Below, piece after piece: positions 13,436-61,044 of a stretch of DNA of 64,000 nt. The stretch's first letter is position 1. Each line of letters starts with the position of its first letter. The notes below the pieces were generated by a model. The model was not told where the DNA came from. It saw only the letters and a list, made by a program, of their open reading frames with translations, and did not search any database. Made by a program: the position numbers and the translations under genes. Source of the stretch: a virus; IMG/VR virus record IMGVR_UViG_3300020473_000021, positions 32,001 to 96,000 of that record. The stretch is one strand, 5' to 3'.

Positions 13436-14242
13436 TTAATCGCGACGGAAGCGCTCGTAAGCCTCTTCCATCTTTTCATCATAACGGTTTTCTTCATAAG
13501 CTGGACCGTTGTAAGCATATGCAAACGATGCCCAGTCTAACTCACGTAACGCATCAAGTAAACGATTGTCTGCCTCGATGAACCTAACAAAAGATTCTAG
13601 CTGCTTATGCTCACCTTCACACACTGAATCGTAGTAGTGTTGTGGGCTTTCATAACCTAATCGTTTCCAATGGAATCCCATGATTTGGAAACGACCATAA
13701 GAAGCCGATTCGATCGCCGCAGCGGGATTGAGAGACATTGCTTTGTCTAAGCGATGGTTTTCCTCAACTCCACCCGAATAACCGCCCCTGTCGGCGTTGA
13801 CGATGTCTGAGGCATATTTCTGACCAAGTTCTGCTGCTAACGTAAGATCATAATGCATGAGACGCTTAAGCATCCAGTGACGCTCAAATAACACTTTGAT
13901 TGTTCCGTCGCTATGGAAACCACCGCCAGACGATTCAACCTCACTGACTGCTCTGAGTGCCTCTACCTCGACGTCGAGGTATGCGGCTGCATCTTCGATA
14001 TCTTTTTCACGCAATGCCCAGTCTGGTTGTTTCTGATCATCCAGTTGCATTTCAATGAGAGTACGCTCACCAACAAGACCATCAACGACCAAACCTTCAG
14101 AACGTTGAAAAGCTTTTACAGCCCGTTCCGTACCAGGACCAAAGTCCCCATCAATAATGCCTTGATAGAAACCTCGTTCCTTCAACACTTCCTGTAGTTG
14201 TTCTACATCAGGTCCCGAAGAACCTAAACGCAATAAGTCCAT
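13436..14242 (-). CDS. Modular endolysin: peptidoglycan-binding domain plus N-acetylmuramidase (DUF3380-type)
   Basis: LRLGSSGPDVEQLQ..L..DGDFGPGTERAVKAFQ..GLVVDG (PG_binding_1); VES.G.GF, LFERH, SASYGRFQIMGFH, FA.AYNGP.Y..N.YD. Confidence 0.93.
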   Translation of the reverse strand: MDLLRLGSSGPDVEQLQEVLKERGFYQGIIDGDFGPGTERAVKAFQRSEGLVVDGLVGERTLIEMQLDDQKQPDWALREKDIEDAAAYLDVEVEALRAVSEVESSGGGFHSDGTIKVLFERHWMLKRLMHYDLTLAAELGQKYASDIVNADRGGYSGGVEENHRLDKAMSLNPAAAIESASYGRFQIMGFHWKRLGYESPQHYYDSVCEGEHKQLESFVRFIEADNRLLDALRELDWASFAYAYNGPAYEENRYDEKMEEAYERFRRD

Positions 14243-14252
14243 TGTAACCCCC

Positions 14253-14699
14253 TTAATGTCGTATATCCGGGTTATTAGACAACAGCGCCAGCCACAACCG
14301 GACTGGTGTGATCAAACCAGGATCGAACCGCAATGCCATGTTCCCTGCCCTCAACGCACCAGAGATGAACTCCGCTGGTGTAGCATGGTTACGATTATAG
14401 TTTTCAGTTGTAGGTAAACGAAACAGGTGTAACCACCCATAGCGTAGGTGTGTTCTATCTCTTATGTAATCGACGCAACGTCGCTGATCTGGGACATCAA
14501 CATTGATCTCTACATGTTTACCTAATAATTCATAAAAGATGTTCCGATGATGGATACGGACACCTTCATATTTACTTATTTCGCAGACAAACCCGTCCTT
14601 GAAATCTATTGCTACACGGTCCCATGGAGAAACCTGCATGATCCGACTAATGATCGATCCAGACCCCCCGCCACGAGAGAAAATGATGCTGGTAGACAT
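14253..14699 (-). CDS. Permuted NlpC/P60 (YaeF/YiiX-like) protein, probably catalytically inactive
   Basis: IIFSR..GS..SRI..SPW.RVAI..DG.V.E....GVR..Y....AEFI..AL..G...ITP..L pattern; His and Cys positions replaced. Confidence 0.55.
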   Translation of the reverse strand: MSTSIIFSRGGGSGSIISRIMQVSPWDRVAIDFKDGFVCEISKYEGVRIHHRNIFYELLGKHVEINVDVPDQRRCVDYIRDRTHLRYGWLHLFRLPTTENYNRNHATPAEFISGALRAGNMALRFDPGLITPVRLWLALLSNNPDIRH

Positions 14700-14749: not shown

Positions 14750-14825
14750 GAAAAAAAGAACACATACTACCTCCTACTTAGTAGGTTCACTAAGAACCAT
14801 ACCATGAGTAAGAGATAGCATGTGT
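14750..14825 (-). terminator. Long hairpin terminator / structured RNA
   Basis: About 29-bp stem on the minus-strand RNA with four G.U pairs, followed by UCUUUUUUUC. Confidence 0.75.
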
Positions 14826-14834
14826 AGTCTTTCA

Positions 14835-15278
14835 TTAATACTCAGTCACCCTTGAGGTGGTCCACTCAGTTGTCCAAGTGGTCGTATAAGGAACAGCTAT
14901 TTCAGTCAAACGTGAGGTTTGAAATGACGTCACTGTCGTTATATAACCAGATGTAACATGTGAAGTAGTCCAACTTGTGGTAACCTGTCGACTCACTGTG
15001 GTAGAACGAGACGTACCACGACTTGTATTTCGTGATGCCGTCCATGTGGTAGTATAATTGGTAGTCCTACTCACTGACGTCGAACGAGTCTTTGTTGTCG
15101 ATTTAGTCGTACTCCGACTTACGCTCCAGCTGGTGGTCCACGATGTCGTCCAACTTGACGTATATGACGTCGAACGAGACTCAGTACTATACAAAGTAAC
15201 CCAATCTCGAGTGTTGAAGTTAGTCGTATGACTACCCGTTATGGTATTATAACTAGTAGTCCATGAAGTGGTTGGCAT
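14835..15278 (-). CDS. Thr/Ser-rich tetrapeptide-repeat protein
   Basis: AGGAG RBS; almost entirely x-T-S-[W/Y/R/K] units (TTSW TTSY ... TASR NTSR GTSR). Confidence 0.85.
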   Translation of the reverse strand: MPTTSWTTSYNTITGSHTTNFNTRDWVTLYSTESRSTSYTSSWTTSWTTSWSVSRSTTKSTTKTRSTSVSRTTNYTTTWTASRNTSRGTSRSTTVSRQVTTSWTTSHVTSGYITTVTSFQTSRLTEIAVPYTTTWTTEWTTSRVTEY

Positions 15279-15289
15279 AGTGACTCCTA

Positions 15290-18200
15290 CTATTTCTTAA
15301 CTACGACTCCGCCACCGGGTATGTTGTGAACCAACAACCCACCAGCAAAGTAAGTATCGTATTCTTCAACATCAATACTGACAGTATCGAATTCACCAGT
15401 AACATACACCATGGTTTCGATGAGTACTTCTTCGAGTTCTTCGTTAAGCATGATATCGCCAACTTCAAGATCTCGAACATCAAACCATGACCAACCATTG
15501 CCTTTATTGGCAAGTACTTCGTGTTGTTTAGTAATGGTCAACGTGTCATTAATTAAATAACCCGCACGGAACCAATCCCTTTCAACACTTCTAACAGTAA
15601 CATCGACGTATGTAGGTTTCGATAGGCTTTGTGTTGTCCAATCTCTCCAACCATCGATACTCTCATCGATCATACCTTCAATGTTAACACCACGTAGAAC
15701 GTCACCGACTTTAACATCTCCAGCTAAGATGGTTTCGCCAGATGCCAACCAAAGTTTGGTATCGAGCGATATACAACCACCACCACCACCACCGCCGGAA
15801 TAAGTATTCCTGCTGGTCGTTTTAGAGGTAGAACGAACGGTGTCGGTTGTACGATATGAATAAGTATACTGCATGTAAGAGGATACATATTGAGTATTGC
15901 GTGATCCTTGCTTACTCGTCGTTCGACTGGTCGATTTACTCGTTGACCAACTCGTGGTATAGCTTGTAGATGCGCTATAATTGGTATTAACACTAAAGAA
16001 CGTCGTTTTACTGGTCGTACGACTTGCCGTCCATGAAGTGGTAAAGCTTGTCGTCCAATTAGTATTCCAAACGCTATCTTTAAACGTTTGTCTACTGGTG
16101 GTGTAACTTGTGTTACGCTCCATATAGACTTGCGTGTTACGACTGGTATTGAATCGAGTTGTATATGAACTCATGCGCTCAGTCGTACGAGAGGTCTGTT
16201 TAGATGTTGTCCATTGAGTCACACGACGACGCATAACTTGCAGCTGATAACGATCTGACCAACTACTCCATCCTGCACCAGAACTTTGGTAGCGAACTTG
16301 AAGTTGTAATCCCACATCACTACCTGGTCGGAACCCATTGTTATATGGATTGTGTTTCGTTAGGTCTGATGTAGATTGAACATCGTAAACTACCGTACCA
16401 GATGCATCGCGGATACGCCACTGAGTCCTGATGTGGTCTTCATCGCCATCATACAGACTACCCACCATAGTAAACTCACGAGTGATGCGACCGTCAGCTT
16501 CGCGACCACTAGCCGTTACCGCCGGTTTAGCAATGCGCATGGTATCGATAATGTAAGTCTCAGACCAAGGACTGTCGGTTACGCGATAACCTGCATGTTT
16601 AACGCGAGCATATAGTCGCGTATCGCTTGGCATACCCTTAACGGCTTTACTCGTTAATTCAGTCTTAGACAATTGATCAATCAACCGGTTAGAGAAGTTA
16701 GCGTCAGTAGCTACTTGCCAAACCGAATGACGATGACTGTCGAACGAATCATACGGTCTAACACCAAACGGCGTTGTCTTTATATCGAAATCGATAGGAA
16801 CTCGAGGCATATTACCGGTAACCGCAGGCCACGTAATGGTTGGCTGTTCAACACCACTAAACACAATGTGTAACGTGACCGTTCTAGCTTTACCATCTTT
16901 ATATACCGTAAAGGGTTGATTACCTAAAGGTGAGTTCTTAACAATCTGACCTGTGAAACGTTCACCGACAACACTAATGTCACCTACAGGAGTTTCTACA
17001 GCATAAGAACTCCCCACGTGGTAGTTGGTTATCATCAAGTCGATGTCTTCAGCTTGATAATAACGATTCTCACCATCAAGGTTTATACCACCCATCTCAC
17101 CCGCAGCTTCAAAGGCAGCATCCATCTCGGCTAACGAGACATTATCAACATTACCTAATCCCAACTGTTGTTTGGTGACTTTATGTGGGTTGTTGAAGTT
17201 ACCAGTGTGTGATGATAGCGCATCACCGACAAGGTTATCGATACTCACCTTTAACGTATATGGCGTTAAGTAGTGTGAATCACTCAGACCCTGACTTGCT
17301 ATCGATTCGCTAGCTAATCCATAGTTAACTACTTGACCTAGATTAACTTGCGCTTTAGTAACCTCATGTGGATTTTCTTTATCGGCGATATGCTGATCAA
17401 CCAACACACCACCTTGCTCAGATATGGCAAAGCGCATACCCAACGGATGAATATACGTAAAGTCGTTCTCACCCGTAATAGTTAATGCATTAGATGCCAT
17501 CGGATAATTGTTTAGTTGACCTAAACCCACTTGAGCTTTAGTGACTTGGTGTGGATTGGTATAATCTTCCAAGTGTTGAGTATAATCAGGAACCCACTGC
17601 TCTCCAATCAACCAATGCATTCTGGCCGGAGTTACAAACTTATTTGTGACACCCGACTCATCTGCCATGTCGGAGTTAGTCGCTTCAGCAAAGTTATCAA
17701 CTTCACTCAAACCAACTTGTATCTTAGTGACATCGTGAGGGTCATTATTATCATTAGCGTGATTGGCTAAGTTTTCCAATACCTGATCGAAGTAATCGTT
17801 CAACAAATCCAAACGGTGTTGGAGCATGGCGAATATTTCATCGTGACTCGCTCCATCACCCACAACAAGTGCGGTATGGATCTTCTTCATCAGGTTGACG
17901 AGGAATTCCCAACCATAGATATCCACAATATCAGTCAAGTGACTTTCAGGTGGTAAGAATTCTGGACGACCTAATATACGACCCCATTGAACTTCACGCT
18001 CGTTGAGTTGTAGATCTTCCATTGCGTCGATGATGGCCGGTGCAATAGAAGAGTAATCGCCACCGACACTTTGATATGTCAAACGGATGTTGTTTGATAC
18101 AGACTCATCGGTGATAACGATCCCGGCATAAACGGCTTTATTACTCCGCTCAGTTGGCTCAGTAAAATAAAGAGCTGGCCGATATTGATCTTTATTTAAC

Positions 18201-18373
18201 GGCTGATTATTATCGATATCGTAGATGTTAACAGAGTCAAGATAGAAAGCCCCACCATGGGGCGCAAGGAATCGCTCCTTGTCCCCTAATAATGTTCTTT
18301 GCTCATCACTCACTAAATTAAGTGGTGATTGACCCGTTAGATCTAAGGGATATCTTTGAACACTTACGTCCAT
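15290..18373 (-). CDS. Tail-fibre-like virion protein (phiKZ gp145/146-type N-terminus) with FN3-like domains, Thr/Ser repeat tract and C-terminal Hint domain
   Basis: YPLDLTGQSPLNLV N-domain; 4 PHxVTKxQ(V/L)xL repeats; two WQ/WR...VRY/VKH...SxWS FN3-like units; Gly7-CIS...TKQH...GGLLVHN. Confidence 0.85.
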   Translation of the reverse strand: MDVSVQRYPLDLTGQSPLNLVSDEQRTLLGDKERFLAPHGGAFYLDSVNIYDIDNNQPLNKDQYRPALYFTEPTERSNKAVYAGIVITDESVSNNIRLTYQSVGGDYSSIAPAIIDAMEDLQLNEREVQWGRILGRPEFLPPESHLTDIVDIYGWEFLVNLMKKIHTALVVGDGASHDEIFAMLQHRLDLLNDYFDQVLENLANHANDNNDPHDVTKIQVGLSEVDNFAEATNSDMADESGVTNKFVTPARMHWLIGEQWVPDYTQHLEDYTNPHQVTKAQVGLGQLNNYPMASNALTITGENDFTYIHPLGMRFAISEQGGVLVDQHIADKENPHEVTKAQVNLGQVVNYGLASESIASQGLSDSHYLTPYTLKVSIDNLVGDALSSHTGNFNNPHKVTKQQLGLGNVDNVSLAEMDAAFEAAGEMGGINLDGENRYYQAEDIDLMITNYHVGSSYAVETPVGDISVVGERFTGQIVKNSPLGNQPFTVYKDGKARTVTLHIVFSGVEQPTITWPAVTGNMPRVPIDFDIKTTPFGVRPYDSFDSHRHSVWQVATDANFSNRLIDQLSKTELTSKAVKGMPSDTRLYARVKHAGYRVTDSPWSETYIIDTMRIAKPAVTASGREADGRITREFTMVGSLYDGDEDHIRTQWRIRDASGTVVYDVQSTSDLTKHNPYNNGFRPGSDVGLQLQVRYQSSGAGWSSWSDRYQLQVMRRRVTQWTTSKQTSRTTERMSSYTTRFNTSRNTQVYMERNTSYTTSRQTFKDSVWNTNWTTSFTTSWTASRTTSKTTFFSVNTNYSASTSYTTSWSTSKSTSRTTSKQGSRNTQYVSSYMQYTYSYRTTDTVRSTSKTTSRNTYSGGGGGGGCISLDTKLWLASGETILAGDVKVGDVLRGVNIEGMIDESIDGWRDWTTQSLSKPTYVDVTVRSVERDWFRAGYLINDTLTITKQHEVLANKGNGWSWFDVRDLEVGDIMLNEELEEVLIETMVYVTGEFDTVSIDVEEYDTYFAGGLLVHNIPGGGVVVKK
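15323..15775 (-). other. Hint (intein-like) autoprocessing domain
   Basis: Cys1 (CISLDTKL), DVKVGD, block B TxxH (TKQH), DLEVGD, block F/G SIDVE..TYFAGGLLVHN; +1 residue is Ile. Confidence 0.85.
15797..16222 (-). repeat. Tetrapeptide (12-bp period) repeat tract x-T-S-[W/Y/F/R/K]
   Basis: VTQW TTSK QTSR TTER MSSY TTRF NTSR ... TTSF TTSW TASR TTSK ... STSY TTSW STSK STSR TTSK. Confidence 0.85.
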
Positions 18374-18398
18374 ACATCGACCCTTATTTCATTAACTG

Positions 18399-19334
18399 TT
18401 ACTTAAACGGTGTCTTCAACCAGTCCTTCAATGTGTATTCACTGACCGATAGACGTTGGTTGATATGCATGCGATACGGTTCTCGCAAAGCCAACACCGC
18501 TTCCTTATAGCGCTTGATACGCTCGATGATTTCTTCGTCTTCCATGGTAGGATGTAAGAAACCTGAACACTCATGCATCATTATATTTGTGATGCGTTGG
18601 GCGTCATTATCATCGTGTTCGATAACAGAACAATGGCTATGATAAGTCAGTAACCAATCGGTATCTAACCGCGTTAAATCCACGAACTTCTTACCTTTGA
18701 GTCTGGCTAAGAAACTGAACTCAGACGATTGTAAGGTAGCGATCTCTTCAGCATTATTAAACATACCGTGACCACTGAACTTCCTATCAATCTCAATGAT
18801 ACGATCATAGCCGCAAAAGTTAGCGATATCACGAATAGAATCCCGATTTGTAACGGGGTGTGGTTTAATCACCCATTCAGGATCTTTAAGAAGCTCAATC
18901 AGCTTACTCTGGTCAATAGCTTGAAATAGGTTGCTACCTGGTAACATGATGACCTTCTTGAACTTAGGTGCTTGCTCACCAGGTGCCATCTCATATTTGT
19001 CATCAACGAATGAATGTGGAAACTCAAGCTCCGCATCCTCATCTTTTATTTTTTGTGCTAACTGCCAATTGATCTCTGCTGATGCAGTACCAATTTGAAT
19101 ACCACCTAAGACATCATAATAGTTTAATGTTTTAAAGAAAGGTGGTTCAATCGTGATGCAGTCTGTACCCAATGGGAAATCCAAATGTTGGTCGATGAGA
19201 TCTTCGATTCGATGTAACGAAGAAAGTTTCTTATTACGTTTGTTCTCAGGACCAATGCGATCTTTGTTATCGCCATCTTTGTGGAGATGAAGGCGCGTCG
19301 GTGCCTCCATGAATATACCCTTAGAGTCTGGCAT
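18399..19334 (-). CDS. Putative GT-B glycosyltransferase (KpsS/KpsC, Capsule_synth-like)
   Basis: DKY...IMLPGS...VIKPHP...IATLQSSEFSFLARLKGKKFV resembles the SKY...KxHP...xNSxxGxEAxxxGKxV pattern of capsule beta-Kdo transferases. Confidence 0.5.
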   Translation of the reverse strand: MPDSKGIFMEAPTRLHLHKDGDNKDRIGPENKRNKKLSSLHRIEDLIDQHLDFPLGTDCITIEPPFFKTLNYYDVLGGIQIGTASAEINWQLAQKIKDEDAELEFPHSFVDDKYEMAPGEQAPKFKKVIMLPGSNLFQAIDQSKLIELLKDPEWVIKPHPVTNRDSIRDIANFCGYDRIIEIDRKFSGHGMFNNAEEIATLQSSEFSFLARLKGKKFVDLTRLDTDWLLTYHSHCSVIEHDDNDAQRITNIMMHECSGFLHPTMEDEEIIERIKRYKEAVLALREPYRMHINQRLSVSEYTLKDWLKTPFK

Positions 19335-19387: not shown

Positions 19388-19417
19388 AAAAAATAAAGAG
19401 GGGACTTATGCCCCCTC
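19388..19417 (-). terminator. Intrinsic terminator
   Basis: GAGGGGGC-ATAA-GTCCCCTC plus TTTATTTTTT on the minus strand. Confidence 0.85.
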
Positions 19418-19424
19418 GATATAA

Positions 19425-21623
19425 CTACACGATCTCGACTTCAAGAACGCTTGGTTCTCCATTTCGATAAACCGTCATTTTACTTGGACCTGTCGCCCAA
19501 TCCGATTTAACTACGCCTGGAACGATGTCATCGCCAATAGGGAACTGTAGCACATCCCACGTAGACAATGCTTGACTCAAACAACCGAATCCAATCTGTT
19601 GTGCTCCACGGAACACATGTAGATCAGGATCGTCATTTAAGTCGATAGTGAACGTTGCATCAGGTATGTAGTCTGATGTGTTTGTCTGTGTGGTTTCTAC
19701 AGTAATGGTATCACCCACACGCGTCGCTTTAATGCGGACACCGTTAGGTACATCATCCCAACCGTTATTAGGATCATTAGACGAAGTAGGTTTAGAACCT
19801 ACAGAACCATCCGGCCATTTCAAGATACCTTGATAGCGATGTAGTTCTTTCGAATCGACACCGATGGCAAAGTTTTTATGGATTCTGAACTGACCACTGG
19901 TATTGAAACGACGAACAGCCTCAAGCGTATGGACTTGACCACTTGCATCACGAGCATAAGCCAAGACGATACCGATATAGTCATCGTCGCCATTAGCCGA
20001 GCTAACTCTCGCTTCAAATACGTAGTTCTGGTAAGATTCAGGTGAGATAAACCCGATATAAGTTGTGGAGTTAATTGTACACTCAACTGAGTTGGTATCA
20101 GTATTGTACTGCCACGCATTCATCTCAGATTCATCGAATGTCGTCGTTAGCGTATCGCCTTTACGACTGAAACGAGTCCAAGAGTTCAGTATCTCTTGCC
20201 ATGAAGCGCCCTTACCGCCTAGGTTCATCGTTAAAAATGGTGCATCAACTGAATAGTCACTGTAACTATCGTAGTTGGTGATCTGCCATTCATAAGGTTT
20301 ACCACGCGATACCGTAAGTGGACCATCTAACGTAGTTAAGTAGTTAGATCCCGACAATGCGAATCGCTTATCGAGTTGAGCGATCGACATGTTAGGTACC
20401 TTACCTAAACCTACTTGTGCCTTAGTGACCTTATGTGGATTATCCTTACGTGCTACGTGATTCGCTATCTCATCGCCTGCGGCTTGATCTATAGCCTCTT
20501 TAGCTGTTCTGGGAGATAGATATAAGTCGTTACGAGAACCGTCCTTAGCTTGCTGTATAGAAGCCATAGCGAAGTTCTTGAGTAACCCCAATCCCACCTG
20601 ATGCTTAGTGACATTATGTGGGTTAGTGAAATCCTCCAAATGCGCTTGAAGTATTGCACCACCTTGATCGGCGATAGCTCTGCGAGCTAAGTCAGGCGTC
20701 ACATAACGATCGTCTCTCGTGCCCTCTATAGCTTCTTCAATCGTCGCCACAAGAAGGTTAAGTACTTTTCCTAATCCGACCTGAGCTTTAGTCACCTGAT
20801 GAGGATTGTTACGATCGTTTAAATGTTTATCAAGATCTCTCAAGATAAACTCATTAAGGATATCCATCACCTTACTAGGCGTTAGACGAGTATTGTTATT
20901 GAACTCATCATACGCTTCGTCTGTGGTCGATTTAGCGTAGTTAGCAACGTTGCCTAAACCCACTTGGGATTTAGTTACATTGTGGGGATTATCACGACGT
21001 GCTTTATGTTCACGAATACGCATGAGTACGCTATCGGCATATGCATCCATCGATCCATATTCACGTTCAATAAACGCTTCAATCTCAATGTGGGACGTTA
21101 CATCCTTACGCAACACAAGGTCTGTCATGTCGTTCAGTACTTGTACGACATACTCCCAACCGTATATATCACCGATATCATGCAAATGCTGTACAGGTGG
21201 AAATACAGATGGTCTACCAAAAACGTCACCCCAGAGTACCTCACGTTCATCTAAGTTGATGTTATTAATCAAGTTAGCGATGACGGGTTCTATGTTACAA
21301 TAAACACCACCCAACACTTGGTAGTCAACGATTACTCGATCGCCTATCTCAGGATCGGTAATGACGACACCACAACAAATTTCACTATCGGCCAACTTAC
21401 TGGCTTCAGGATAATGAAGTACTGGAATGTATTGCGACTTGATATTAAGTTCACGACCCGTATCGGCATCTCTTACAATGAGCGTGTCTGTGAAGAAAGC
21501 GCCGTGTCGAGTAACAACACTTCGATTGATACCGGGCTTTAGCGTGTGAGGTTCCCCCACTACACGGTTGACAGGCGATTCACCCGTCTTATCTAATCGG
21601 TACTTACGTACGATCTCTTTCAT
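19425..21623 (-). CDS. Tail-fibre-like virion protein with inserted lectin-like (TSP C-terminal-like) domain
   Basis: YRLDKTGESPVNRV N-domain paralogous to 15290; 4 NPHxVTK repeats; GDDDYIGIVLAY motif. Confidence 0.8.
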   Translation of the reverse strand: MKEIVRKYRLDKTGESPVNRVVGEPHTLKPGINRSVVTRHGAFFTDTLIVRDADTGRELNIKSQYIPVLHYPEASKLADSEICCGVVITDPEIGDRVIVDYQVLGGVYCNIEPVIANLINNINLDEREVLWGDVFGRPSVFPPVQHLHDIGDIYGWEYVVQVLNDMTDLVLRKDVTSHIEIEAFIEREYGSMDAYADSVLMRIREHKARRDNPHNVTKSQVGLGNVANYAKSTTDEAYDEFNNNTRLTPSKVMDILNEFILRDLDKHLNDRNNPHQVTKAQVGLGKVLNLLVATIEEAIEGTRDDRYVTPDLARRAIADQGGAILQAHLEDFTNPHNVTKHQVGLGLLKNFAMASIQQAKDGSRNDLYLSPRTAKEAIDQAAGDEIANHVARKDNPHKVTKAQVGLGKVPNMSIAQLDKRFALSGSNYLTTLDGPLTVSRGKPYEWQITNYDSYSDYSVDAPFLTMNLGGKGASWQEILNSWTRFSRKGDTLTTTFDESEMNAWQYNTDTNSVECTINSTTYIGFISPESYQNYVFEARVSSANGDDDYIGIVLAYARDASGQVHTLEAVRRFNTSGQFRIHKNFAIGVDSKELHRYQGILKWPDGSVGSKPTSSNDPNNGWDDVPNGVRIKATRVGDTITVETTQTNTSDYIPDATFTIDLNDDPDLHVFRGAQQIGFGCLSQALSTWDVLQFPIGDDIVPGVVKSDWATGPSKMTVYRNGEPSVLEVEIV

Positions 21624-21629
21624 GATAAT

Positions 21630-22097
21630 CTACTCCTGCATCATCGCTTCTCGATGGTTATCGAGTAGTCTTCCCTTAACACCCACTTCAACTTTACCGT
21701 CGGGAGACCCTTTCTTCGCGATCTTCTTATAATACATCCATCCCATGGCACGCACAGCATAATACATTGAGGTGGCGGCCCAACCGGGTACACCTTCTTC
21801 CAACATACCGCGTTTGAATAAATCATCTGCTTCTTTACGCGTTACACGTCTTGAAGCATATAGGTAGTCGTGCAATAGAGCCGCCCATACAGAACGCCCC
21901 TTAATAGCAGCGTAGATATATGGAACCTTTGGAACGCTGTCTAAGTCTGTAGTGAAGCCAGTCGGTACGGTGTGACCATATTTGTTCCAATCTTCAACAA
22001 CGACCCACCAACCTCGTTTTGGTAATGGTGCAAGTGTCGGGACATTAATGTTATCGATGAACGACTTAACGTCCTTTATTTGCATTTGATCTTTCAT
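21630..22097 (-). CDS. DUF1353 family protein
   Basis: VPTGFTTDLDSVP, AALLHDYLY, RKEADDLF, MYYAVRAMGW. Confidence 0.85.
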   Translation of the reverse strand: MKDQMQIKDVKSFIDNINVPTLAPLPKRGWWVVVEDWNKYGHTVPTGFTTDLDSVPKVPYIYAAIKGRSVWAALLHDYLYASRRVTRKEADDLFKRGMLEEGVPGWAATSMYYAVRAMGWMYYKKIAKKGSPDGKVEVGVKGRLLDNHREAMMQE

Positions 22098-24940: not shown

Positions 24941-27679
24941 TTAACGTTTAGAGAAGTATGTCTCACCTTTCGGCCCGACAAACATCCAACCTAAGTTAGA
25001 TACCACCGCTCGCTTATAACCGATTACATCGGTATCAAAGTCATACGCAAACCAAGTTTCACCTTTGTTGGTGCTGCGGAATATCTGATCGCCGTCTGAG
25101 ACAACGAGGAATAGGCTATCGATTTCATCTGAACGACCTAAAGTAGGATTGAACTCAATGTCCAAAATACTCCAAGTATCAAATGCGAAATCATAGTTAG
25201 CCGTTTCACCGTTAGCATCTTTGAAAAAGACGTTATTGATATCCATGATATCAACAAACGTCATATCGCTTGAGATGCCATTGCTACGACCAGAAATGAT
25301 CTCATCAATACCCTGGCCAGGCTGGAATATAAACGGACCATTGTTGGTTGCTAAGAAAACCATGCCTTTATCAAATCGAGAGTAATCTCGAATCTCACTG
25401 ATTTCGGCATTAGTTTCTTCAGTCCAAGTCACACCCGCATCACCACTGTGGAAAATTGAATCGTTCGTGATGATAACGAAGTTGTTACTTGAGAACTGAC
25501 CTGCGCCATTAATGGTAAGTTTACTAGACAACCCAGTAGGCGTAACATCGTTCCAGTTAGTTCCACCGTTCGATGTACGGAATACTTGTTTGTTAACCGT
25601 AACCACAACCCAAGCATCACCCGTAACGCCTAAGGCTAAGATATCGTCGGTTGTAGGACTATTTAACGAGCTCCAGCTAGAGCCATTAAATCGAGCAATG
25701 CGTCCGCCAACACCCGCAACGATAAATGTACCGTCAGGAGCCGCCTGAAGGGCGTCTATGGATAGATTATAGCTCTCACCTTGGTCTGGATCACCAATAA
25801 AGATACCGTAAGAATATTTCTGTTGGATATCGATTAGGTGTTTACCATCGAGACGCCAGTTAAGATCTTCAAATGACGTAGTCACGCTCTCAGAGAAGTT
25901 CCGCTCATCTTCTTTGATGGTTTCAATCTCAGGCATGACGATTTGATCAATCTGGACTTTTGTCAAGTAAGGTGTGCTATACATATTCTCAACGTTCTGC
26001 TTGGCCTGTTCAGCAGTTGCTACCGACCAGTTGGCAACGTTGCCCAACCCGACTTGAGACTTAGTCACTTGGTGTGGGTTATCAGTCCGCGCTACGTGTT
26101 CCTGTATAGGAGGTAATGCAATCTGATCAACCGTTGCACGTACACCAGCTGGCGTTGCGTACATCTCTTCACTTTCACCCGTCACAGTCGCTGCAACACT
26201 CGCTACGCTATAGTTAGCAACCTGACCAAGACCAACGTCTGCTTTTGTCGTACCACGAGCACGCAATAAAGCATAGTTACCATCTTGTTGTGCATATCGA
26301 GCATCGTAGTCACCCCTTGAGTAGTTTTCTACTTTACTCAAGCCAATCTGATCTTTAGTCACATTGTGTGGGTTGTTCTGATTCTCTTTATGGTTATCAA
26401 TCGCAGCAATAGCAACGTAGTTGATCGCCTCAGCAGTTGCTTCTGGTGTCATAAACTTGTTGTTGGCAACACCATCACGAGCGTCTTGAGCTGTCGCTGT
26501 ATTATAGTTATCGACATTTCCTAACCCAACTTGTCCTTTCGTTACGTTGTGAGGATTGTCCGTGTTGGAATAGTGAGACAAAGCTAATTGTTTAACTTCA
26601 GTATCGATGGCAGCGAATACGCCCGCAGGGGTAGCAAACAAGGATTGGGATGTACCCTCTCTATGTTCTGTGATAGTTGCTGCTTTATAGTTAGGTACAT
26701 TACCTAACCCAACCTGACCCTTGGTCACGTTGTGAGGGTTATTGGATGCACCCACGTGATCTACAACGTCAGCACCAATACGGTTTTCAACGGCCGCTGC
26801 TACACCTTTTGGTGTAACAAACAATGTTTCTGATGTACCGTCTAACGTTTCACCCACAGTTGCCGTTTCGAAGTTATCGACTTTTCCAAGCCCCACCTGA
26901 CCTTTAGTAACGCCATGTGGGTTATCTTTGGCAGCAATGTGATCATCCACTTTGTTTCCAACTTGCACTTTAATTGCTTCAGCAACAACAAGTGGAGTAG
27001 TAAAGCGAACATTAGATTCACCAGCCTGACCCTCTTCAACGGAAGCGGTGGGATAGTTATCCACACTACCAAGTCCGACTTGGGTTTTTGTGACTTCGTG
27101 TGGATTATCGGTTTTAAGTGCGTGAGCAGCTGCTGCACCACCATCCAATTCACCATTAGCGATCGAATCTTTAATGGCTTGTAAGACATCAACTAAATCT
27201 GATGCACCTACTAAGTCTACCAGATCCCACTCGTGATCAATGACTGGGAATTTTTCCGGTAATTGTACAACCTGCTCCCAAGTTGTAATACGTGGGTTAT
27301 TAACCACGTTTGAAAGTAGCTCTGCCGCCTTGGATTCATCAATAATCCATTTACCGCCGATCGTTTGGTATTCAAGCTCTAATGTACCCGATATATCATC
27401 GTTGTAGATAGAGATGGCACCATACACAGGTTTAGCAGTGGCTTTCGAGGCAGAGTTAAATTGATATGATAGAACATAGTCTTCCCCTTTGATAAGTTCC
27501 TTACCAGAGGGATAGTGGACAATCTTCAACCCATCTTCAAAGAACGGTCCAGAGAACGGAACAATGAAGTAGTAATCCAGATAATCTGGAGGGCTAACGA
27601 TATGTCTTTCATTTTTGACCAAGTTCTCAGATTTCCGACCCGTTGGATCAAACGGATAGGTGTAAGATACCTCTGTCAT
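24941..27679 (-). CDS. Tail-fibre-like virion protein with C-terminal BNR/Asp-box beta-propeller
   Basis: YPFDPTG..SENLV N-domain; 6 NPHxVTK repeats; TSNGGTNW, SGDAGVTW, STNKGETW Asp-boxes. Confidence 0.85.
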   Translation of the reverse strand: MTEVSYTYPFDPTGRKSENLVKNERHIVSPPDYLDYYFIVPFSGPFFEDGLKIVHYPSGKELIKGEDYVLSYQFNSASKATAKPVYGAISIYNDDISGTLELEYQTIGGKWIIDESKAAELLSNVVNNPRITTWEQVVQLPEKFPVIDHEWDLVDLVGASDLVDVLQAIKDSIANGELDGGAAAAHALKTDNPHEVTKTQVGLGSVDNYPTASVEEGQAGESNVRFTTPLVVAEAIKVQVGNKVDDHIAAKDNPHGVTKGQVGLGKVDNFETATVGETLDGTSETLFVTPKGVAAAVENRIGADVVDHVGASNNPHNVTKGQVGLGNVPNYKAATITEHREGTSQSLFATPAGVFAAIDTEVKQLALSHYSNTDNPHNVTKGQVGLGNVDNYNTATAQDARDGVANNKFMTPEATAEAINYVAIAAIDNHKENQNNPHNVTKDQIGLSKVENYSRGDYDARYAQQDGNYALLRARGTTKADVGLGQVANYSVASVAATVTGESEEMYATPAGVRATVDQIALPPIQEHVARTDNPHQVTKSQVGLGNVANWSVATAEQAKQNVENMYSTPYLTKVQIDQIVMPEIETIKEDERNFSESVTTSFEDLNWRLDGKHLIDIQQKYSYGIFIGDPDQGESYNLSIDALQAAPDGTFIVAGVGGRIARFNGSSWSSLNSPTTDDILALGVTGDAWVVVTVNKQVFRTSNGGTNWNDVTPTGLSSKLTINGAGQFSSNNFVIITNDSIFHSGDAGVTWTEETNAEISEIRDYSRFDKGMVFLATNNGPFIFQPGQGIDEIISGRSNGISSDMTFVDIMDINNVFFKDANGETANYDFAFDTWSILDIEFNPTLGRSDEIDSLFLVVSDGDQIFRSTNKGETWFAYDFDTDVIGYKRAVVSNLGWMFVGPKGETYFSKR

Positions 27680-27787
27680 GACATGATCCTTAATCGAAAA
27701 GACAATGAAATCTTATGAAAACATCATAAAGAACGCCATATCATAAGCTGTTAAAAAATACAGCAGTTGATCATACGGAGAAAAATC

Positions 27788-57900: not shown

Positions 57901-59350
57901 CGCTTGATCCTGTGCGGATCATTTCAGCTTCACGTAAGATTTCAGAAAGTAAGTTAGGGATAGTTTCGGTAATCGTCTTATCGGTAAGTTCCGTATACGT
58001 CGATACTTCTTCAGCTAACGTATCTGATGACATCCCGAATCGGCCTTCCTCCGTATAACGAGGAATCATGTCAGCGATACGCTCTAATAACGCCAGTTCG
58101 CCTCTCTCTCGAAAACTGACCTTCTCACCCTCTAACTCTTTACGATCGATCTCCTTACGGAGCGACTCTACTCGAGCATCGACATTACCTGCAACTGATT
58201 GGGCTGCCCTATCTGTACCGCCTTGAGCAAGATATTCAAGGTCAGAACCTACTCTAGCTAAGGTATCGTTATCCTTAGTAAAGCGACCGATAAGTTTACC
58301 GATTTTACCAGCAGCCCAATTACCACCCTCACTACCTACAAGGTTACCTGCTAGGTCTAACGGGTCAACACCATCCCCTGCCATATCCATCGTTTCGGCA
58401 GTTTCAGTAATGTTATCCGCTATCGATTGGGTAAAGTCGCTGACCTTACCTTTTATATTCTCAAATAGGTTACCAGTGAAATCTTGACTAAAGCCATATA
58501 GGCTATCGCCGATCTTACCTAGGGTTTTATCCCTAAGCATTTCACGTACCCGCTCAGAACCACGCATCTTAAGAAATTCAGGCAGGGCTGTATTCTTACG
58601 AATATCAACCAATGACTGACCTGACTCTTCAGCATATTCCTTTAATAGCGAGTATTGGTCTTTAGCGACGAAGTATTGACGGAATTGAAGTTCTAAAGAT
58701 TTCTTTTGGAACTTCGATGCAATATCTTCTTGATAACCCACGACACGACCAATAGCTTCTTGGATGTGTTCAAGCTGGCTCTTATTGTCCAGATGACGCG
58801 CATCTTCTAAAGCACGGTCGGTCTGCTTCTCCGTTTGTTCCTCTACGTCATCCTGAGCTTTCTGCTCTTGTTGCGTTTGGAATATTTCACCTAACGTCGT
58901 TTGGATTTCATTTTCTTGAGGATCATAAGCTTCACCACGACTATCGTCTGGATCTTCTTTAGTCCAACTATCAAGTTTATCATCCAACCACTTAGGGATA
59001 TAAGGAGAAGCCTTTTCTCTTACTTTTCTCCCGATCTTTTTAGCATCTTTAGCCGCAGGTCTGAGTCGATCTTTTGCGGTATCGTATAGATCCTCGGCAG
59101 CATCGGCAGCATCAGTTACGCCTTGATACGCACTACCATAACCTTTCGGTAATGCATTATCTAACAGTTTCTTTTGTGTGCTGCGACTTATTGCCGACTG
59201 CTTGATGCCGTCAGCAAACCCACGACTTGCTCGATCGACGGGCGATCGGTCGGAGGGGTCTGATTCGGGATCATCAAAATCGAGATCGGGGAGATCCAGA
59301 TCATCATCTAAATCATCATCTAGATCGAGGTCATGGTCTTCGTTAGCCAT
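51989..59350 (-). CDS. Giant tail (tape-measure-like) protein, phiKZ gp181-like
   Basis: FQKKSLELQFRQY, KNTALPEF.K, DVY..GE.EP.L.A repeats, D.DGLRDGGW, hydrophobic stretch, W...RF.PV; between the gp180-like and gp182-like genes; AGGAG RBS before 59350. Confidence 0.85.
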   Translation of the reverse strand: MANEDHDLDLDDDLDDDLDLPDLDFDDPESDPSDRSPVDRASRGFADGIKQSAISRSTQKKLLDNALPKGYGSAYQGVTDAADAAEDLYDTAKDRLRPAAKDAKKIGRKVREKASPYIPKWLDDKLDSWTKEDPDDSRGEAYDPQENEIQTTLGEIFQTQQEQKAQDDVEEQTEKQTDRALEDARHLDNKSQLEHIQEAIGRVVGYQEDIASKFQKKSLELQFRQYFVAKDQYSLLKEYAEESGQSLVDIRKNTALPEFLKMRGSERVREMLRDKTLGKIGDSLYGFSQDFTGNLFENIKGKVSDFTQSIADNITETAETMDMAGDGVDPLDLAGNLVGSEGGNWAAGKIGKLIGRFTKDNDTLARVGSDLEYLAQGGTDRAAQSVAGNVDARVESLRKEIDRKELEGEKVSFRERGELALLERIADMIPRYTEEGRFGMSSDTLAEEVSTYTELTDKTITETIPNLLSEILREAEMIRTGSSDAERQVYDFDKGQVVRESQLQDDIRQKIVDSGDVRGLTEKVNKVVDLLDGEGKLDNETRAKLADQIEKDVFQNKAFTIENYADADNLDMLSSDEADKVTQLINNQYMEDGKFKKDRKASEIRKDASKVYGDAKRGVPNYKEVIARSASTYGSGVLERAGLSEYTGKDGLHETRSETVRDIFKDLDDNRNVVRTEVQGSQRNVLDDISNADVGSSEPVYAPQPEVDVSRWDKLMDSAKQWVEPYLQVLWETMDESKAFIEGIYDFLIERFDGDPPDGSGGGTPPPGGSPWDRPTWTGPSGSSPWDRAVGSFKSMVTSPWDRDVGQPQPNVGFSESTYNPNSEGSMGEKLGTMAGNLFSKAKDKTEGLRSKASEYGNRALGEVESTYRRYRSSESVLDELKGDASRLTDSAKGKWDQARADLSERYEGSKLQGYVGKARSKFDEVSSDVNEFLLDNGIDVVKLAEDGEAYIQGLYQDAQAKGQPYVEELEKRLGALSDFSSEALEILSDKDARGEIYQDAKDKALDSLNTAKENAVNLSESIYDHMQTEEGRRELARRAGFVKDDLVSGISDRFDDIKGRVESSDIYTKFSPKVDDLSTRYGDLRKRVEQSETFTKFKPKLDEAKGRFDDARASMQDSFSDLKENAGSKVEQLRSYLTEHFGNSNGEVDEVVGQLDDSDISPDKVDELAGTARFRASFNRLLNNAKSRFFGGGGDEPPTGELPHPSDSEPSSGGRYSATDEPFRPWLDELKQHLDVKTEMLIRAIAAQDNRGVLGKTFDTLRSGAASVGSNLMGYYGKTFSGIGSLFKGAGQGAGNLLGGLFNKREKQSGSSTVADIYLEGVEEPIILARDLKRGLYSDLESGDPIHSFDDIDGAVINSDGDVVITSEDVEQGKLYVLSGKETRPIADFLKGGASLLGKGAKGLFGGYWNAARSIQSGIFTAVKKVGGFLPGLLFGKEKEKSAKDVYVKGETEPRLRAVIMKTGGYLSAETEEPIRTIQDIDGEVLDLDGNVVLSHEDIKKGLVDSRGKPLDLSTGKSNGLVQHAMNLTRKGLDMTVGLTKGVFKASKSVVKGIGGAVGGLFGGMFGGKLKGENAEKLLSDSEQQTQLLTEIRDLINERVNPPDKFFDQDDDGLRDGGWRSKLYGDKSKDDAEGKDGKDKGEFADKGNSILSKLGGLFGLGGGDGGDDGNDYSYVDVGGDGDNDKDRDKNRNNKNNKPKTKLGKLWQGVKNVGSRVGGALGLNAIGGGLKTAGSFLWNNVIRSGTSWAIRGLWALGTAAVSILGAPVALAVGAAVAIGAGAYFLYKWADQADLDDVNRARYTQYGADLENDEHVGMMYKLENFFQDYVVMPKDQPPKLEGVDPEDLLDEIDLDPEEDEEQIERFYQWLNDRFKPVYLSWIAAGQPYMEDFDVEDMEDQLEVKEKIEVMKRSKFEDGPDSPYRKMTSPYKEDSGVVGFSQVDRVYNEVMELLESQLEDEGEGESTDTSTAEAQTEKTEHTKEELMAMTPAERLRASASRQDNPRIKRKMLDAANRLEKRQGSKGTTLAGMAIAANGEGPIELQLQEGQVAELPDASLVNDAVGKTRIVTYGLQSTDETEKVQHLLELERVVKPMMQISNGKATFKGSRVKLFNEYASMFGRDPESDKDRTIWTEWFTKRFIPVLATYMSKMSAMKGSFYSPMSLKGQGPYEVASNMRSAVNGSQMSVWTVFAPPWPDYKLSDNSAQVREFLNELLTRKDQSSQADVQKSRPDFGKDETEELGRLGGQKADGYQTDAALFADFESPGSKPNEPNDTQGDTQRVEGDQESDGGLDPRGAADRLRAAAERQTNPRAKQMMLRKANELERGVYGSQYAKPTAVDDERDERAAVARQVLDRDARRQERSVAAAAAQNQVHNTKLTENTNRMVSILNQSVGVQKTMVDQLSQISSYLRDSTGAAKKDESQSKDKKDNKPKQRQNTTGNGDVKPAVNMNR

Positions 59351-59406
59351 AGACGATCTCCTTTGTGAAAAATACAATTTGTCATAGCATTTAAAGTGAG
59401 GACGCT

Positions 59407-61044
59407 ATGAGTATAGAGCGCTTACCCTTTAACATTAGTTTGTTAAAGTTAACTCCAGGACAGATACGTTTATTAAAACCGATCACGAGTTTAGATACCG
59501 TAGATGCCCCCGGTTCAAGTGACTTTCATTCTGAAGGTCTTTTTTCAACTGAAATATTTGGGCGTGTAGGTGAAGACGCACGTGATGAGACCTTCGCTTA
59601 TATACCACTTAAGACTAAGATACTTCATCCAATTGTTTATCAACGGCTTGAGCGTTTGAAGCGTCTATATGCTGGGATATTATCAGGCAAAACCTATGCG
59701 GTTTGGGATGATAAAGAAAAAGACTTTGTGCAAAGTACTGAGGTGGAAGGAAAAACTGGTTTCCACTTCTTCATGTCTAAGTGGAAAGATATTGTCTTTA
59801 AGAAAGGCGATAGTGAGATACGTAACCAACGAATCGACTTGATCAATAAGTATCGAGAGGAAGCGGTCATCAGCGACGTACTTGTTATGCCTGCTGGGTT
59901 ACGGGATGCTGAGATAGATGCTATCGGTCGAACTCAAGAAGATGAGATCAACACACACTACCGTCGATTGATTGGTATTGTAAACACCATTGGTGATGGT
60001 AATAAGAATGATGGACCCATCCTTGATAATGCTCGGTACTCACTACAGATGACGTTTAATGAAATCTACTTTACCATTGAGAAAATGTTAAGTGGTAAGA
60101 AAGGTTTCATTCAGAACAAATATGGTTCACGTCGAATCATGAATGGTACTCGTAACGTTATATCGGCGATGGAGTTGTCACCACCTGACTTAGATGAGTC
60201 TAACTTCCCTGAAGCAGACGATACAGTAGTGGGTCTATTCCAGTGTTCAAGAGGCGCACTCCCAATCACCATCAATCGTTTGATGAACAATATTCTGCAA
60301 CCGGCTTTTGGTGATGAGGAAGGTCAGGTAAAACTTATCGATCGAAAAACACTTCGTTCTGAGTTCGTTAATGTGTCTGCACAAACGTTTGACCGTTGGA
60401 CTACTACTGAGGGTTTAGAAGCAGTTATCTCATCTCAAGAAATGACTGAGGCCCGTGCTAAACCTGTGGTTGTGGAAGATCGCTATTTAGCTTTGGTGTA
60501 TAAACCTAAAGATCGTAAAGTGTTTAAGGTATTCTACGACATCGATGAGCTACCTGATGACTTTGATAAAGATGACGTATATCCAATCACATTACATGAA
60601 ATGATTTATTTGTGTAACTATAGTGGTTGGAATGATTTACGCATCCAATCAACTCGTTATCCGGTGACCGGTGAAGAGAGTTCTTATCTATCGCGTGTCT
60701 TTGTACGAACCACAGTTAAGAGTGAAGAACGTGTCGAGTTGAACTCTAACTGGGAAGATCAAGAACCCAGTAAAGAGAATACAGCTTACGTTTATCCCGT
60801 ATTCGAACCTGAGTCTTATATCGATTCTCAAATGGTTCATAGCTATCGCTTGGGTGGACTCGGTGGTGACTTCGACGGTGATACGGTATCGGGTAACATC
60901 ATTTATACAAAAGAAGCAAAAGAAGAAGTTGATAAGTATCTCAACTCAAGAGAAGCCCACGTAGATCCATCAGGGGGACTGCGTGCGTCTGCCTCGATTG
61001 ATACGATTCAGCTTGTTATGCACAATATGACTGGAGACGCGTGA
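59407..61044 (+). CDS. Virion RNA polymerase beta' subunit, catalytic part (phiKZ gp180-like)
   Basis: EGLFSTEIFG, V.PAGLRD, GKKGF, R.V, RYP, GGDFDGDT Mg-binding motif. Confidence 0.93.
   Translation: MSIERLPFNISLLKLTPGQIRLLKPITSLDTVDAPGSSDFHSEGLFSTEIFGRVGEDARDETFAYIPLKTKILHPIVYQRLERLKRLYAGILSGKTYAVWDDKEKDFVQSTEVEGKTGFHFFMSKWKDIVFKKGDSEIRNQRIDLINKYREEAVISDVLVMPAGLRDAEIDAIGRTQEDEINTHYRRLIGIVNTIGDGNKNDGPILDNARYSLQMTFNEIYFTIEKMLSGKKGFIQNKYGSRRIMNGTRNVISAMELSPPDLDESNFPEADDTVVGLFQCSRGALPITINRLMNNILQPAFGDEEGQVKLIDRKTLRSEFVNVSAQTFDRWTTTEGLEAVISSQEMTEARAKPVVVEDRYLALVYKPKDRKVFKVFYDIDELPDDFDKDDVYPITLHEMIYLCNYSGWNDLRIQSTRYPVTGEESSYLSRVFVRTTVKSEERVELNSNWEDQEPSKENTAYVYPVFEPESYIDSQMVHSYRLGGLGGDFDGDTVSGNIIYTKEAKEEVDKYLNSREAHVDPSGGLRASASIDTIQLVMHNMTGDA

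Follow-up and report, generated by a model that had tools for sequence, protein, structure and literature searches.

A candidate CMP-sugar glycosyltransferase encoded beside Thr/Ser-repeat tail-fibre proteins in a jumbo-type phage and in other phages of Gram-negative bacteria

A 64,000-nucleotide stretch of viral DNA (hereafter the window) comprises bases 32001-96000 of the IMG/VR record IMGVR_UViG_3300020473_000021 (G000; 133,567 bp, CheckV completeness ~48%). It carries three consecutive minus-strand genes, which encode a 311-amino-acid (aa) protein with the features of a glycosyltransferase, a 1027-aa tail fibre ending in a Thr/Ser-repeat tract, seven glycines and a Hint domain, and a 147-aa protein built of the same repeat. 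The reading that best accounts for this cassette, and which sequence and structural models lead us to hold with slightly better than even confidence, is that the enzyme O-glycosylates the Thr/Ser repeats with a host cytidine monophosphate (CMP)-sugar and that the Hint domain removes itself. It draws mainly on the fold and motifs of the 311-aa protein and on the position of its gene, since a Thr/Ser-rich open reading frame (ORF) lies just upstream of the enzyme gene in 28 of the 30 loci that could be evaluated.

An AlphaFold2 model of the 311-aa protein, computed from a family alignment, is confident (predicted local distance difference test (pLDDT) 93.8, predicted template modelling score (pTM) 0.90). 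[quoted passage not shown] A search of 48,161 chains that is independent of Foldseek returned KpsC as the sole match with Z of at least 8 (9.4; 229 aligned), followed by polysialyltransferase (7.9), WbbB (7.8), KpsC (7.7) and KrkA (6.9). The KpsC alignments (220-229 residues) span residues 1-272 of the model and take in both domains of the GT-B fold. The family profile searched against PDB sequences likewise places four KpsC chains at the top (E 0.028-0.061), aligned at KpHP...SSE...GK. The GT-B fold foreseen by the first-pass annotation, which had worked from the letters of the window, is therefore recovered by model, structure searches and profile alike, as a KpsC-like fold with the KxHP motif.

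The motifs described in that annotation are all present, namely D112-K113-Y114, K157-P-H159-P160, S203-S204-E205 and G213-K214. Across an alignment of 108 relatives, which share 19-41% identity with the query apart from one at 87%, K157, H159 and P160 are invariant, and E44, D58, F67, Y72, K113, Y114, G133, N135, E205 and G258 are conserved in at least 90%; S204 is invariant in separate alignments of 17 and 8 sequences. K157, H159 and P160 align on the KpsC motif and correspond to the (K/R)XHP motif of CMP-sugar transferases, which the KrkA paper (PMC12887879) describes as a C-terminal-domain element that binds the cytosine and phosphate of CMP and is common to sialyltransferases and retaining Kdo transferases. 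The hidden Markov model alignment also pairs S203-S204-E205 with the SSQ of KpsC, giving a counterpart to the Ser-Ser phosphate-binding site. The same paper describes a QXXXD motif common to the three retaining Kdo-transferase families (GT99, GT107 and GT140), in which Asp is the nucleophile and Gln binds the Kdo carboxylate; D-to-C variants of Kdo transferases, it adds, become auto-labelled in E. coli, which makes CMP-Kdo. In the 108 sequences no Gln or Asp is conserved between residues 115 and 156. The phage family has L-P-G-x-N in the loop that follows the opening strand of its C-terminal domain, and we infer that this loop is equivalent to the QXXXD site.

Searches with the 311-aa protein gave nothing from Pfam (E <= 0.1) or NCBIfam, and its PHROGs match, phrog_26179, is of unknown function. 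An exhaustive profile-free search yielded 212 representative proteins at E <= 1e-3, nearly all of ~280-330 aa. Four of the 108 aligned relatives match Pfam Capsule_synth (PF05159) at E <= 1 (best E 0.001), with no match in G000, and four show weak matches to A-2_8-polyST that are below Pfam thresholds for the window protein. Look-alikes in BFVD are uncharacterised phage proteins only, beyond which come proteins of Tetraselmis virus 1, two of them named capsule polysaccharide biosynthesis proteins. We place the 311-aa protein as a GT-B enzyme of the CMP-sugar KxHP class in a family of its own outside GT99, GT107 and GT140; because it lacks both the QXXXD nucleophile motif and a Pfam family match, this would be a new and almost phage-only family, and the earlier placement in GT107/Capsule_synth fails on the same two grounds.

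Loci were collected by protein alignment (2 viral and 2 metagenome loci) and by a degenerate DNA pattern for IKPHPxT[N/D], which supplied most of them. The pattern found 39 loci in IMG/VR, 25 with the enzyme and 14 without, and 115 loci in a set of one genome per prokaryote species, just 3 of them with the enzyme. A locus was scored as positive when a same-strand ORF of at least 80 aa, ending no more than 1 kb upstream of the enzyme gene, held a 50-aa window with a Thr plus Ser fraction (T+S) of at least 0.42. This was so in 26 of the 28 evaluable loci (at least 1 kb upstream) from phage records, IMG/VR and metagenomes and in both evaluable genome-contig loci, and the enzymes of the scored loci fall into 16 clusters at 60% identity. 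L013, L015 and L047, with less than 1 kb upstream, and L081, with 409 nt, stand outside the count; L011 (975 nt upstream) passes and was also left out. Among the 345 ORFs of 16 enzyme-free loci, which give the background rate, 10 pass. Composition and position were used here in place of homology because low-complexity sequence defeats homology searches: for the 147-aa protein, no homologue was found at E <= 1e-3 among 686 candidates and none by tblastn against phage records, both searches being hampered by low complexity. NCBIfam yielded no more than a trivial 'serine-rich protein' match (13.6 bits against a cut-off of 650). The co-occurrence with Thr/Ser-repeat genes, on which the first-pass annotation had staked its proposal, is thus seen in the large majority of enzyme loci.

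Among phage records, tblastn located the enzyme in six Caulobacter phages (nine records; five of the phages are podophages and one is the T4-like Cr30, some being listed under two accessions) and in Vibrio phage D479, and in each case the gene sits just behind tail-fibre genes. The homologue is AGS81088 in Cr30 and gp042 in Quill_5.2/Lullwater. Directly upstream stands a gene for a 185-aa protein rich in Thr, Ser and Tyr in Quill_5.2, a gene for a 117-aa protein rich in Tyr and Thr in Cr30 and, in D479 (OZ195776.1), an unannotated 170-aa ORF full of TSRG/TSWT repeats (L001 7074-7586). Where this last ORF lies, the D479 record instead lists two small genes on the opposite strand and one on the same strand that overlaps it. 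The four IMG/VR and metagenome loci found by protein alignment have the same arrangement. Hosts and bins seen are Gram-negative throughout (Caulobacter, Vibrio, Planktosalinus, Microbulbifer and Dongiaceae). Locus L032 has, between its Thr/Ser-rich gene and its enzyme gene, a conserved 163-aa ORF (2373-2864) whose function is unknown, and a similar ORF (2-403) lies just upstream of the enzyme gene in the truncated L015. L007 (5844-10214) contains a split fibre, with a 280-aa homologue of the N-terminal anchor followed by two 422-aa distal TSW/TSR proteins that flank the enzyme gene, an arrangement which suggests that distal segments of a fibre can be encoded as free repeat proteins.

The fibre in the window has the layout given for it in the first-pass annotation. 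Residues 1-268 match phrog_2163 and are followed by four NPHxVTKxQVGLG-type repeats, middle domains and then the terminal tract, in which 71 of 143 residues are Ser or Thr. The 147-aa protein contains 51 Thr and 29 Ser (54%). Identity at lag 4 is 0.336 in the 147-aa protein and 0.242 in the fibre segment, as against 0.09-0.13 at lags 1-3, and the highest value at any lag that is not a multiple of 4 is 0.18 (147-aa protein, lag 10), so the period of four holds. The sole array reported by Tandem Repeats Finder is the (GGT)6 run that codes for glycines. Copies of the repeat are 61-81% alike in DNA and use all four Thr codons and 5-6 Ser codons; the repeats are maintained at the protein level, with no recent DNA slippage array. 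A template/variable-repeat relation of the diversity-generating retroelement type was considered and ruled out, as the two tracts share just short DNA matches of 61-81%.

Compared with its orthologue P0161 (1026 aa), the fibre tract is identical at 107 of 143 positions without a gap, a level of conservation like that of the folded domains, and 63 of the 71 Ser/Thr positions remain Ser or Thr; a defined, selected register follows from this gap-free conservation. Aromatic and basic residues in the proteins neighbouring the enzyme are spaced by 4, 8 or 4+6 residues. Such even spacing sets them on one face of a beta-strand and hence favours a beta-structured tract over a random coil, so the tract is probably beta-structured. 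The mucin-like character previously suggested for it, in the sense of a floppy region, may accordingly not hold. Acidic residues are rare in the neighbouring repeat proteins, at 1-8% in all but one of those scored and 11% in that one. The ESM Atlas model of the 147-aa protein gives no confident fold (pLDDT 0.24, pTM 0.10), and its nearest clusters, unnamed viral proteins at 0.89, are a lead only.

The rest of the record holds further repeat proteins. Genes of G000 include those for the beta subunit of a phage RNA polymerase, for SbcC, for UvsX-like and DnaB-like proteins and for at least four fibre paralogues, and we therefore take it to be a jumbo-type myovirus; it has one enzyme gene and two Hint copies. 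Outside the window, at G000 124319-128233, a 1304-aa protein has a 196-aa Thr/Ser tract that runs straight into the second Hint domain, the latter ending in HNIPGGGSQVKR. It is followed, 11 nt past its stop codon, by a 187-aa free repeat protein (G000 128245-128808) and then by a 903-aa fibre (G000 128897-131608) with a Thr/Ser-rich C-terminal part and no Hint domain; no second enzyme copy was found near this cluster (G000 124319-131608). Three homologues of the 1304-aa protein, P0009 (from phage NCTB), P0163 and P0164, end in a Hint domain and have no Thr/Ser run. The NCTB record, the one genome of the three that was covered, gives no tblastn match to the enzyme. That these homologues keep the Hint domain and have no run argues that the tract goes with the enzyme rather than with the Hint domain. 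Repeat proteins that lack a terminal Hint domain have in common a motif near the C-terminus, T-[T/S]-F-[Q/A]-T-S-[R/K] (TSFQTSR, TTFQTSK, TTFQTSR and TTFATSR), found at window 14835-14900, G000 128245-128808, G000 128897-131608 and L001 7074-7586.

On the favoured reading, the three genes would make up a late structural operon, headed by the gene for a glycosyltransferase whose dedicated targets are the Thr/Ser-repeat tracts in the fibre proteins of the same phage. During infection this enzyme would move an acidic sugar from a host-made CMP-sugar onto the Ser and Thr hydroxyls of the tracts. CMP-Kdo, as a product of every Gram-negative host, would be the likeliest donor, with CMP-nonulosonic acids as the alternative; the case for CMP-Kdo is drawn from the nearest folds, from hosts that are Gram-negative and from a search of G000 for a cytidylyltransferase, in which a CMP-sugar synthetase (PF02348) was not found in the 133.6 kb of a record itself ~48% complete. 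The 44-kb Caulobacter podophages carry the pair of enzyme and repeat gene too, and together with the missing PF02348 this would fit a host-supplied donor. The enzyme would have as its substrates the fibre tip, the free 147-aa protein and the three further repeat proteins of G000. The outcome would be a glycosylated distal fibre surface, with the tract's basic residues perhaps offsetting the sugar carboxylates.

Several points weigh against this proposal. No glycan has been observed, so that the case consists of fold, motifs and gene order, and all solved relatives of the enzyme act on glycan or lipid acceptors, none on proteins. Since the QXXXD Asp-nucleophile motif of all three retaining Kdo-transferase families is absent, the donor and chemistry of the phage enzyme are not readable from KpsC. 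The Z scores of 9-9.5 are just modestly over the background of 7-8 stated for the tool. Genes for donor synthesis could sit in the missing half of the record, given its completeness. Two lineages (Cr30 and L007) fall below the composition threshold, their upstream proteins being Thr/Tyr/Arg/Trp-rich with T+S of 0.32-0.40, and the threshold of 0.42 was picked after the first loci had been seen. An earlier and stricter screen (T+S of at least 0.44 and aromatic/basic of at least 0.14, anywhere in the locus) was passed by 20 of 32 enzyme loci versus 3 of 16 without the enzyme, and 7 of the 16 enzyme-free loci hold a Thr/Ser-rich ORF somewhere on either strand. The three other repeat proteins of G000 also lie more than 70 kb from its single enzyme gene.

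These points give room to an alternative that we regard as unlikely but worth stating, in which the enzyme acts on a non-protein acceptor (host lipopolysaccharide (LPS), capsule or another glycan) and remodels receptors, for example in a superinfection block or in progeny release, while the repeats are unmodified adhesive or structural segments of the fibre, enzyme and repeats being linked only as members of one host-recognition module. KpsC, WbbB, KrkA and polysialyltransferase, the nearest structures, all use glycan or glycolipid acceptors, clustering of host-recognition genes is common, and the positional conservation and even spacing of the tract suit a structural beta element that needs no sugar. 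It leaves unexplained, however, why a Thr/Ser-rich gene should stand upstream on the same strand so regularly in very different phage types, and why the tract should be missing from the homologous proteins of enzyme-free relatives.

The other part of the favoured reading, self-removal of the Hint domain, concerns the C-terminal end of the fibre. The assignment of the domain, already made in the first-pass annotation, is borne out by an end-to-end alignment with the Thermoplasma VMA mini-intein (PDB 4o1s, E 3.8e-4) and by a structural model (pLDDT 77.5) whose top Foldseek match is the bacterial intein-like (BIL) domain BIL2 of Tetrahymena (E 3.5e-9), with inteins, a Clostridium BIL domain (2lwy, E 6.5e-7) and the hedgehog autoprocessing domain (1at0) lower down. 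Cys1 (C867), T948-x-x-H951 and H1016-N1017, the residues that mark the Hint superfamily, are invariant in five homologues. Position +1 is occupied in homologues by I (twice), M, N, A (twice) or T. Canonical splicing is excluded by the Ile at +1, which is no splicing nucleophile, and a canonical class 1 intein, which would have Cys, Ser or Thr at +1 and lie within a conserved protein whose halves it joins, was rejected on this Ile and on the presence of just 10 residues after the domain. PMC7765530 describes A-type BIL domains as having a conserved C-terminal His-Asn and no +1 nucleophile, occurring in variable, non-conserved proteins and cleaving at their own ends. The fibre domain has the C-terminal His-Asn, no +1 nucleophile and a variable host protein, and self-cleavage is predicted for it. 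Pfam PT-HINT (PF07591), in contrast, scores only 13.5 bits against a cut-off of 27.7, and where a toxin domain would be expected downstream there is nothing but the 10-aa tail. Cys867 would form a thioester at Gly866 and Asn1017 could cyclise, so that the domain would remove itself after folding or assembly, as a fragment of ~18 kDa (161 residues), to leave a mature fibre ending in Gly.

The same ending (Gly run, Cys, Hint, HN and a tail of 4-12 aa) closes proteins that resemble tail fibres in phage NCTB and in jumbo phages of Erwinia, Dickeya and Yersinia, 43 records altogether; GenBank labels some of these proteins 'tail protein, contains intein domain'. Of 112 relatives found in IMG/VR, 80 were kept: 10 have this ending, and 70 are inteins of the ordinary, internal sort. 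The latter (among L164-L243) lie in proteins of ~320-730 aa, mostly ~420-455 aa, with the junction ...YDGN..ALC|LT and ~100 residues past HN. The NCTB and Yoloswag stretches (16-18 kb), and the 80 loci whose Hint domain is related (±7 kb), yielded no enzyme gene. None of the other loci with the enzyme yielded a Hint domain, and in five other phages that have a polyGly-Cys-Hint protein of this C-terminal type no Thr/Ser-rich ORF follows downstream. The Hint domain is therefore an independent module, and the three-part module of the earlier annotation is, by these comparisons, not conserved as one unit. PolyGly-Cys-Hint-HN-short-tail recurs at the C-terminus of large phage proteins as a module to which the literature searched assigns no function. 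A Lys is present in all 14 short tails (4-12 residues) seen after C-terminal Hint domains.

The predicted thioester at Gly866 might instead be passed to a lysine amine of the tail or of the free repeat protein, as in BIL2, to give a covalently branched or extended fibre tip, an outcome that we consider doubtful. According to section 2.4 of PMC8616854, Tetrahymena BIL2 forms an isopeptide bond from Lys to a C-terminus. BIL2 is the best structural match of the Hint model, glycines precede the Cys as in ubiquitin, every short post-Hint tail seen (8 + 6) contains Lys, with K1026 invariant in five aligned sequences, and each of the two Hint-terminated proteins of G000 precedes a free repeat protein with an 11-nt spacer. 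On the other hand, ORFs downstream of the C-terminal polyGly-Cys-Hint proteins of five other phages are not Thr/Ser-rich; in NCTB and Yoloswag the next genes are other small fibre genes; a Lys by chance in a tail of 4-12 aa is not rare and many of the tails are homologous; and plain hydrolysis is simpler. A combined scheme, in which the transferase would add an acidic host sugar (e.g. Kdo) to the Thr/Ser tracts and the GlyGly...Cys thioester of the Hint domain would serve as an ATP-free, ubiquitin-like conjugation that ligates the fibre Gly to a Lys, whether in its own tail or in the free repeat protein, for a branched, sugar-coated tip, strikes us as a long shot. It is equally improbable that the 311-aa protein is an inactive GT-B relic serving as a folding or assembly chaperone for aggregation-prone repeat proteins, in the manner of fibre-adjacent assembly proteins, for which its position beside fibre genes and its lack of QXXXD would speak, since K-x-H-P is invariant in 108 diverged sequences and DKY, G133, N135 and E205 each recur in at least 90% of them, the pattern of an active site and not of a relic.

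The features of the cassette are collected in Table 1. All three genes lie where the first-pass annotation had placed them, and both hairpins were found. The hairpin at the upstream edge separates the glycosyltransferase gene from an upstream fibre gene (19425-21623), beyond which lies a gene for a DUF1353 protein (21630-22097). The ATG of the 147-aa gene comes 11 nt past the fibre stop codon and is preceded by TAGGAG. For the long hairpin after this gene, 0 of 200 shuffled sequences folds as stably. Downstream follow a 148-aa protein (14253-14699), between terminator and endolysin, with no Pfam, PHROG or NCBIfam match, and the endolysin itself (13436-14242). Megablast of the whole cassette against phage records gave no match. 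The paralogous fibres at 19425-21623, 24941-27679 and ~26000-27700 (G000 57937-59658) have in common the phrog_2163 N-terminus and the NPHxVTKxQVGLG repeats and differ in their C-terminal domains; with the DUF1353 protein, this set looks like a multi-fibre host-range locus.

Table 1. Features of the cassette, in window coordinates.
Feature	Position	Strand	Basis or detail
Intrinsic-terminator-like hairpin	19398..19417	-	8-bp stem with 6 GC pairs, loop of 4, T-run; tail TTTATTTTTT
311-aa predicted GT-B glycosyltransferase, KxHP (CMP-sugar type) family, PHROG 26179	18399..19334	-	ORF, fold, motifs
Codons P132-G133-S134-N135, loop after first strand of C-terminal Rossmann domain	18930..18941	-	G133 and N135 at least 90% conserved (108 sequences)
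Codons K157-P-H159-P160	18855..18866	-	K, H and P invariant in 108-sequence alignment
1027-aa tail fibre	15290..18373	-	ORF, PHROGs match, sequence layout
Fibre Thr/Ser period-4 tract, residues ~717-859, x-T-S-[W/Y/F/R/K]	15797..16225	-	Composition, periodicity
Gly7 linker G860-G866, directly before Hint Cys	15776..15796	-	Sequence, (GGT)6 run
Hint (BIL/mini-intein-like) predicted autoprocessing domain, C867 to N1017	15323..15775	-	Cys1, T948-x-x-H951 (block B), H1016-N1017
10-aa tail IPGGGVVVKK after Hint Asn	15293..15322	-	+1 residue Ile; K1026 invariant in five aligned homologues
Free Thr/Ser repeat protein, 147 aa	14835..15278	-	ORF, composition
Long hairpin with U-run, operon-end terminator	14752..14825	-	-42.5 kcal/mol, z = -8.97

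Virion O-glycosylation in mycobacteriophages and dedicated transferase-adhesin pairs in bacteria are already known. The literature searched gave no account of this enzyme family, of Thr/Ser-repeat fibres paired with a transferase or of Hint-terminated fibres. Should the enzyme indeed glycosylate the repeats, it would represent the first system dedicated to tail-fibre O-glycosylation that is known from phages of Gram-negative bacteria, none having been found in that literature. The enzyme family (at least 212 representatives) has no Pfam model and is listed as unknown or uncharacterised in PHROGs and BFVD, and the proposed system spans podophages, T4-like phages and jumbo phages. With it, host recognition, virion surface charge and the evasion of immunity or defence would acquire a post-translational layer, one that sequence-based prediction of receptor-binding proteins ignores. 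The repeat ORF is easy to miss, being wholly unannotated in Vibrio phage D479. A tractable direct test is possible, as the Caulobacter crescentus phages Cr30 and Lullwater/Quill carry the pair.

Among known systems, KpsC (GT107), WbbB (GT99) and KrkA (GT140) have the same two-domain GT-B-like fold as the phage enzyme, which is the size of one KpsC module, and are its top structural matches across both domains, at 9-15% sequence identity in the structural alignments. They differ in having QXXXD, against L-P-G-x-N and no Capsule_synth match in the phage family, and in acting on glycolipid or O-antigen, whereas the presumed acceptor of the almost phage-only family is a protein. Bacterial sialyltransferases and polysialyltransferase (GT38; PDB 5wcn, 5wc6) are alike in the HP motif and the C-terminal nucleotide-binding domain (Z 7.9-8.3, ~122-125 residues), with the alignment of the GT38 polysialyltransferase confined to that domain. 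In mycobacteriophages, phage-encoded glycosyltransferases modify virion proteins, with glycans at the C-termini of capsid and tail-tube subunits (Freeman et al. 2023, as cited in PMC12619734). The hosts there are actinobacterial and the acceptors capsid and tail tube, whereas the system proposed here has Gram-negative hosts, fibre tips and free repeat proteins as candidate acceptors and an enzyme of the CMP-sugar KxHP class.

A parallel in gene order is offered by bacterial pairs of a transferase and a Ser/Thr-repeat adhesin, such as AIDA-I/Aah and TibA/TibC, which use heptosylation, and the serine-rich repeat proteins with GtfA/GtfB. In these pairs the enzyme gene adjoins the adhesin gene, many Ser and Thr residues are modified in the cytoplasm, and the donor for heptosylation, ADP-heptose, comes from LPS precursor pools. 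The phage loci show the same adjacency of enzyme and repeat substrate, and the proposed CMP-Kdo would likewise come from LPS precursors. The bacterial pairs use other enzyme families and donors; here the pair is viral, the substrate a fibre and the modification a proposal. Asp1, of serine-rich-repeat-protein export (PDB 5vae, 5vaf), is low in the fold list of the enzyme (Z 5.4-5.5). The fibre Hint domain has the fold, Cys1, TxxH, His-Asn and absence of a +1 nucleophile of A-type BIL domains and Tetrahymena BIL2, and differs in being the last element of its protein, with Gly7 before it and a 10-aa tail after it; its activity is predicted. The C-terminal intramolecular chaperones of phage fibres and tailspikes (peptidase S74 type) also self-cleave, through a Ser-Lys dyad. 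Their removal from the C-terminus is analogous to the role proposed for the Hint domain, whose fold and chemistry (thioester formation and Asn cyclisation) are unrelated.

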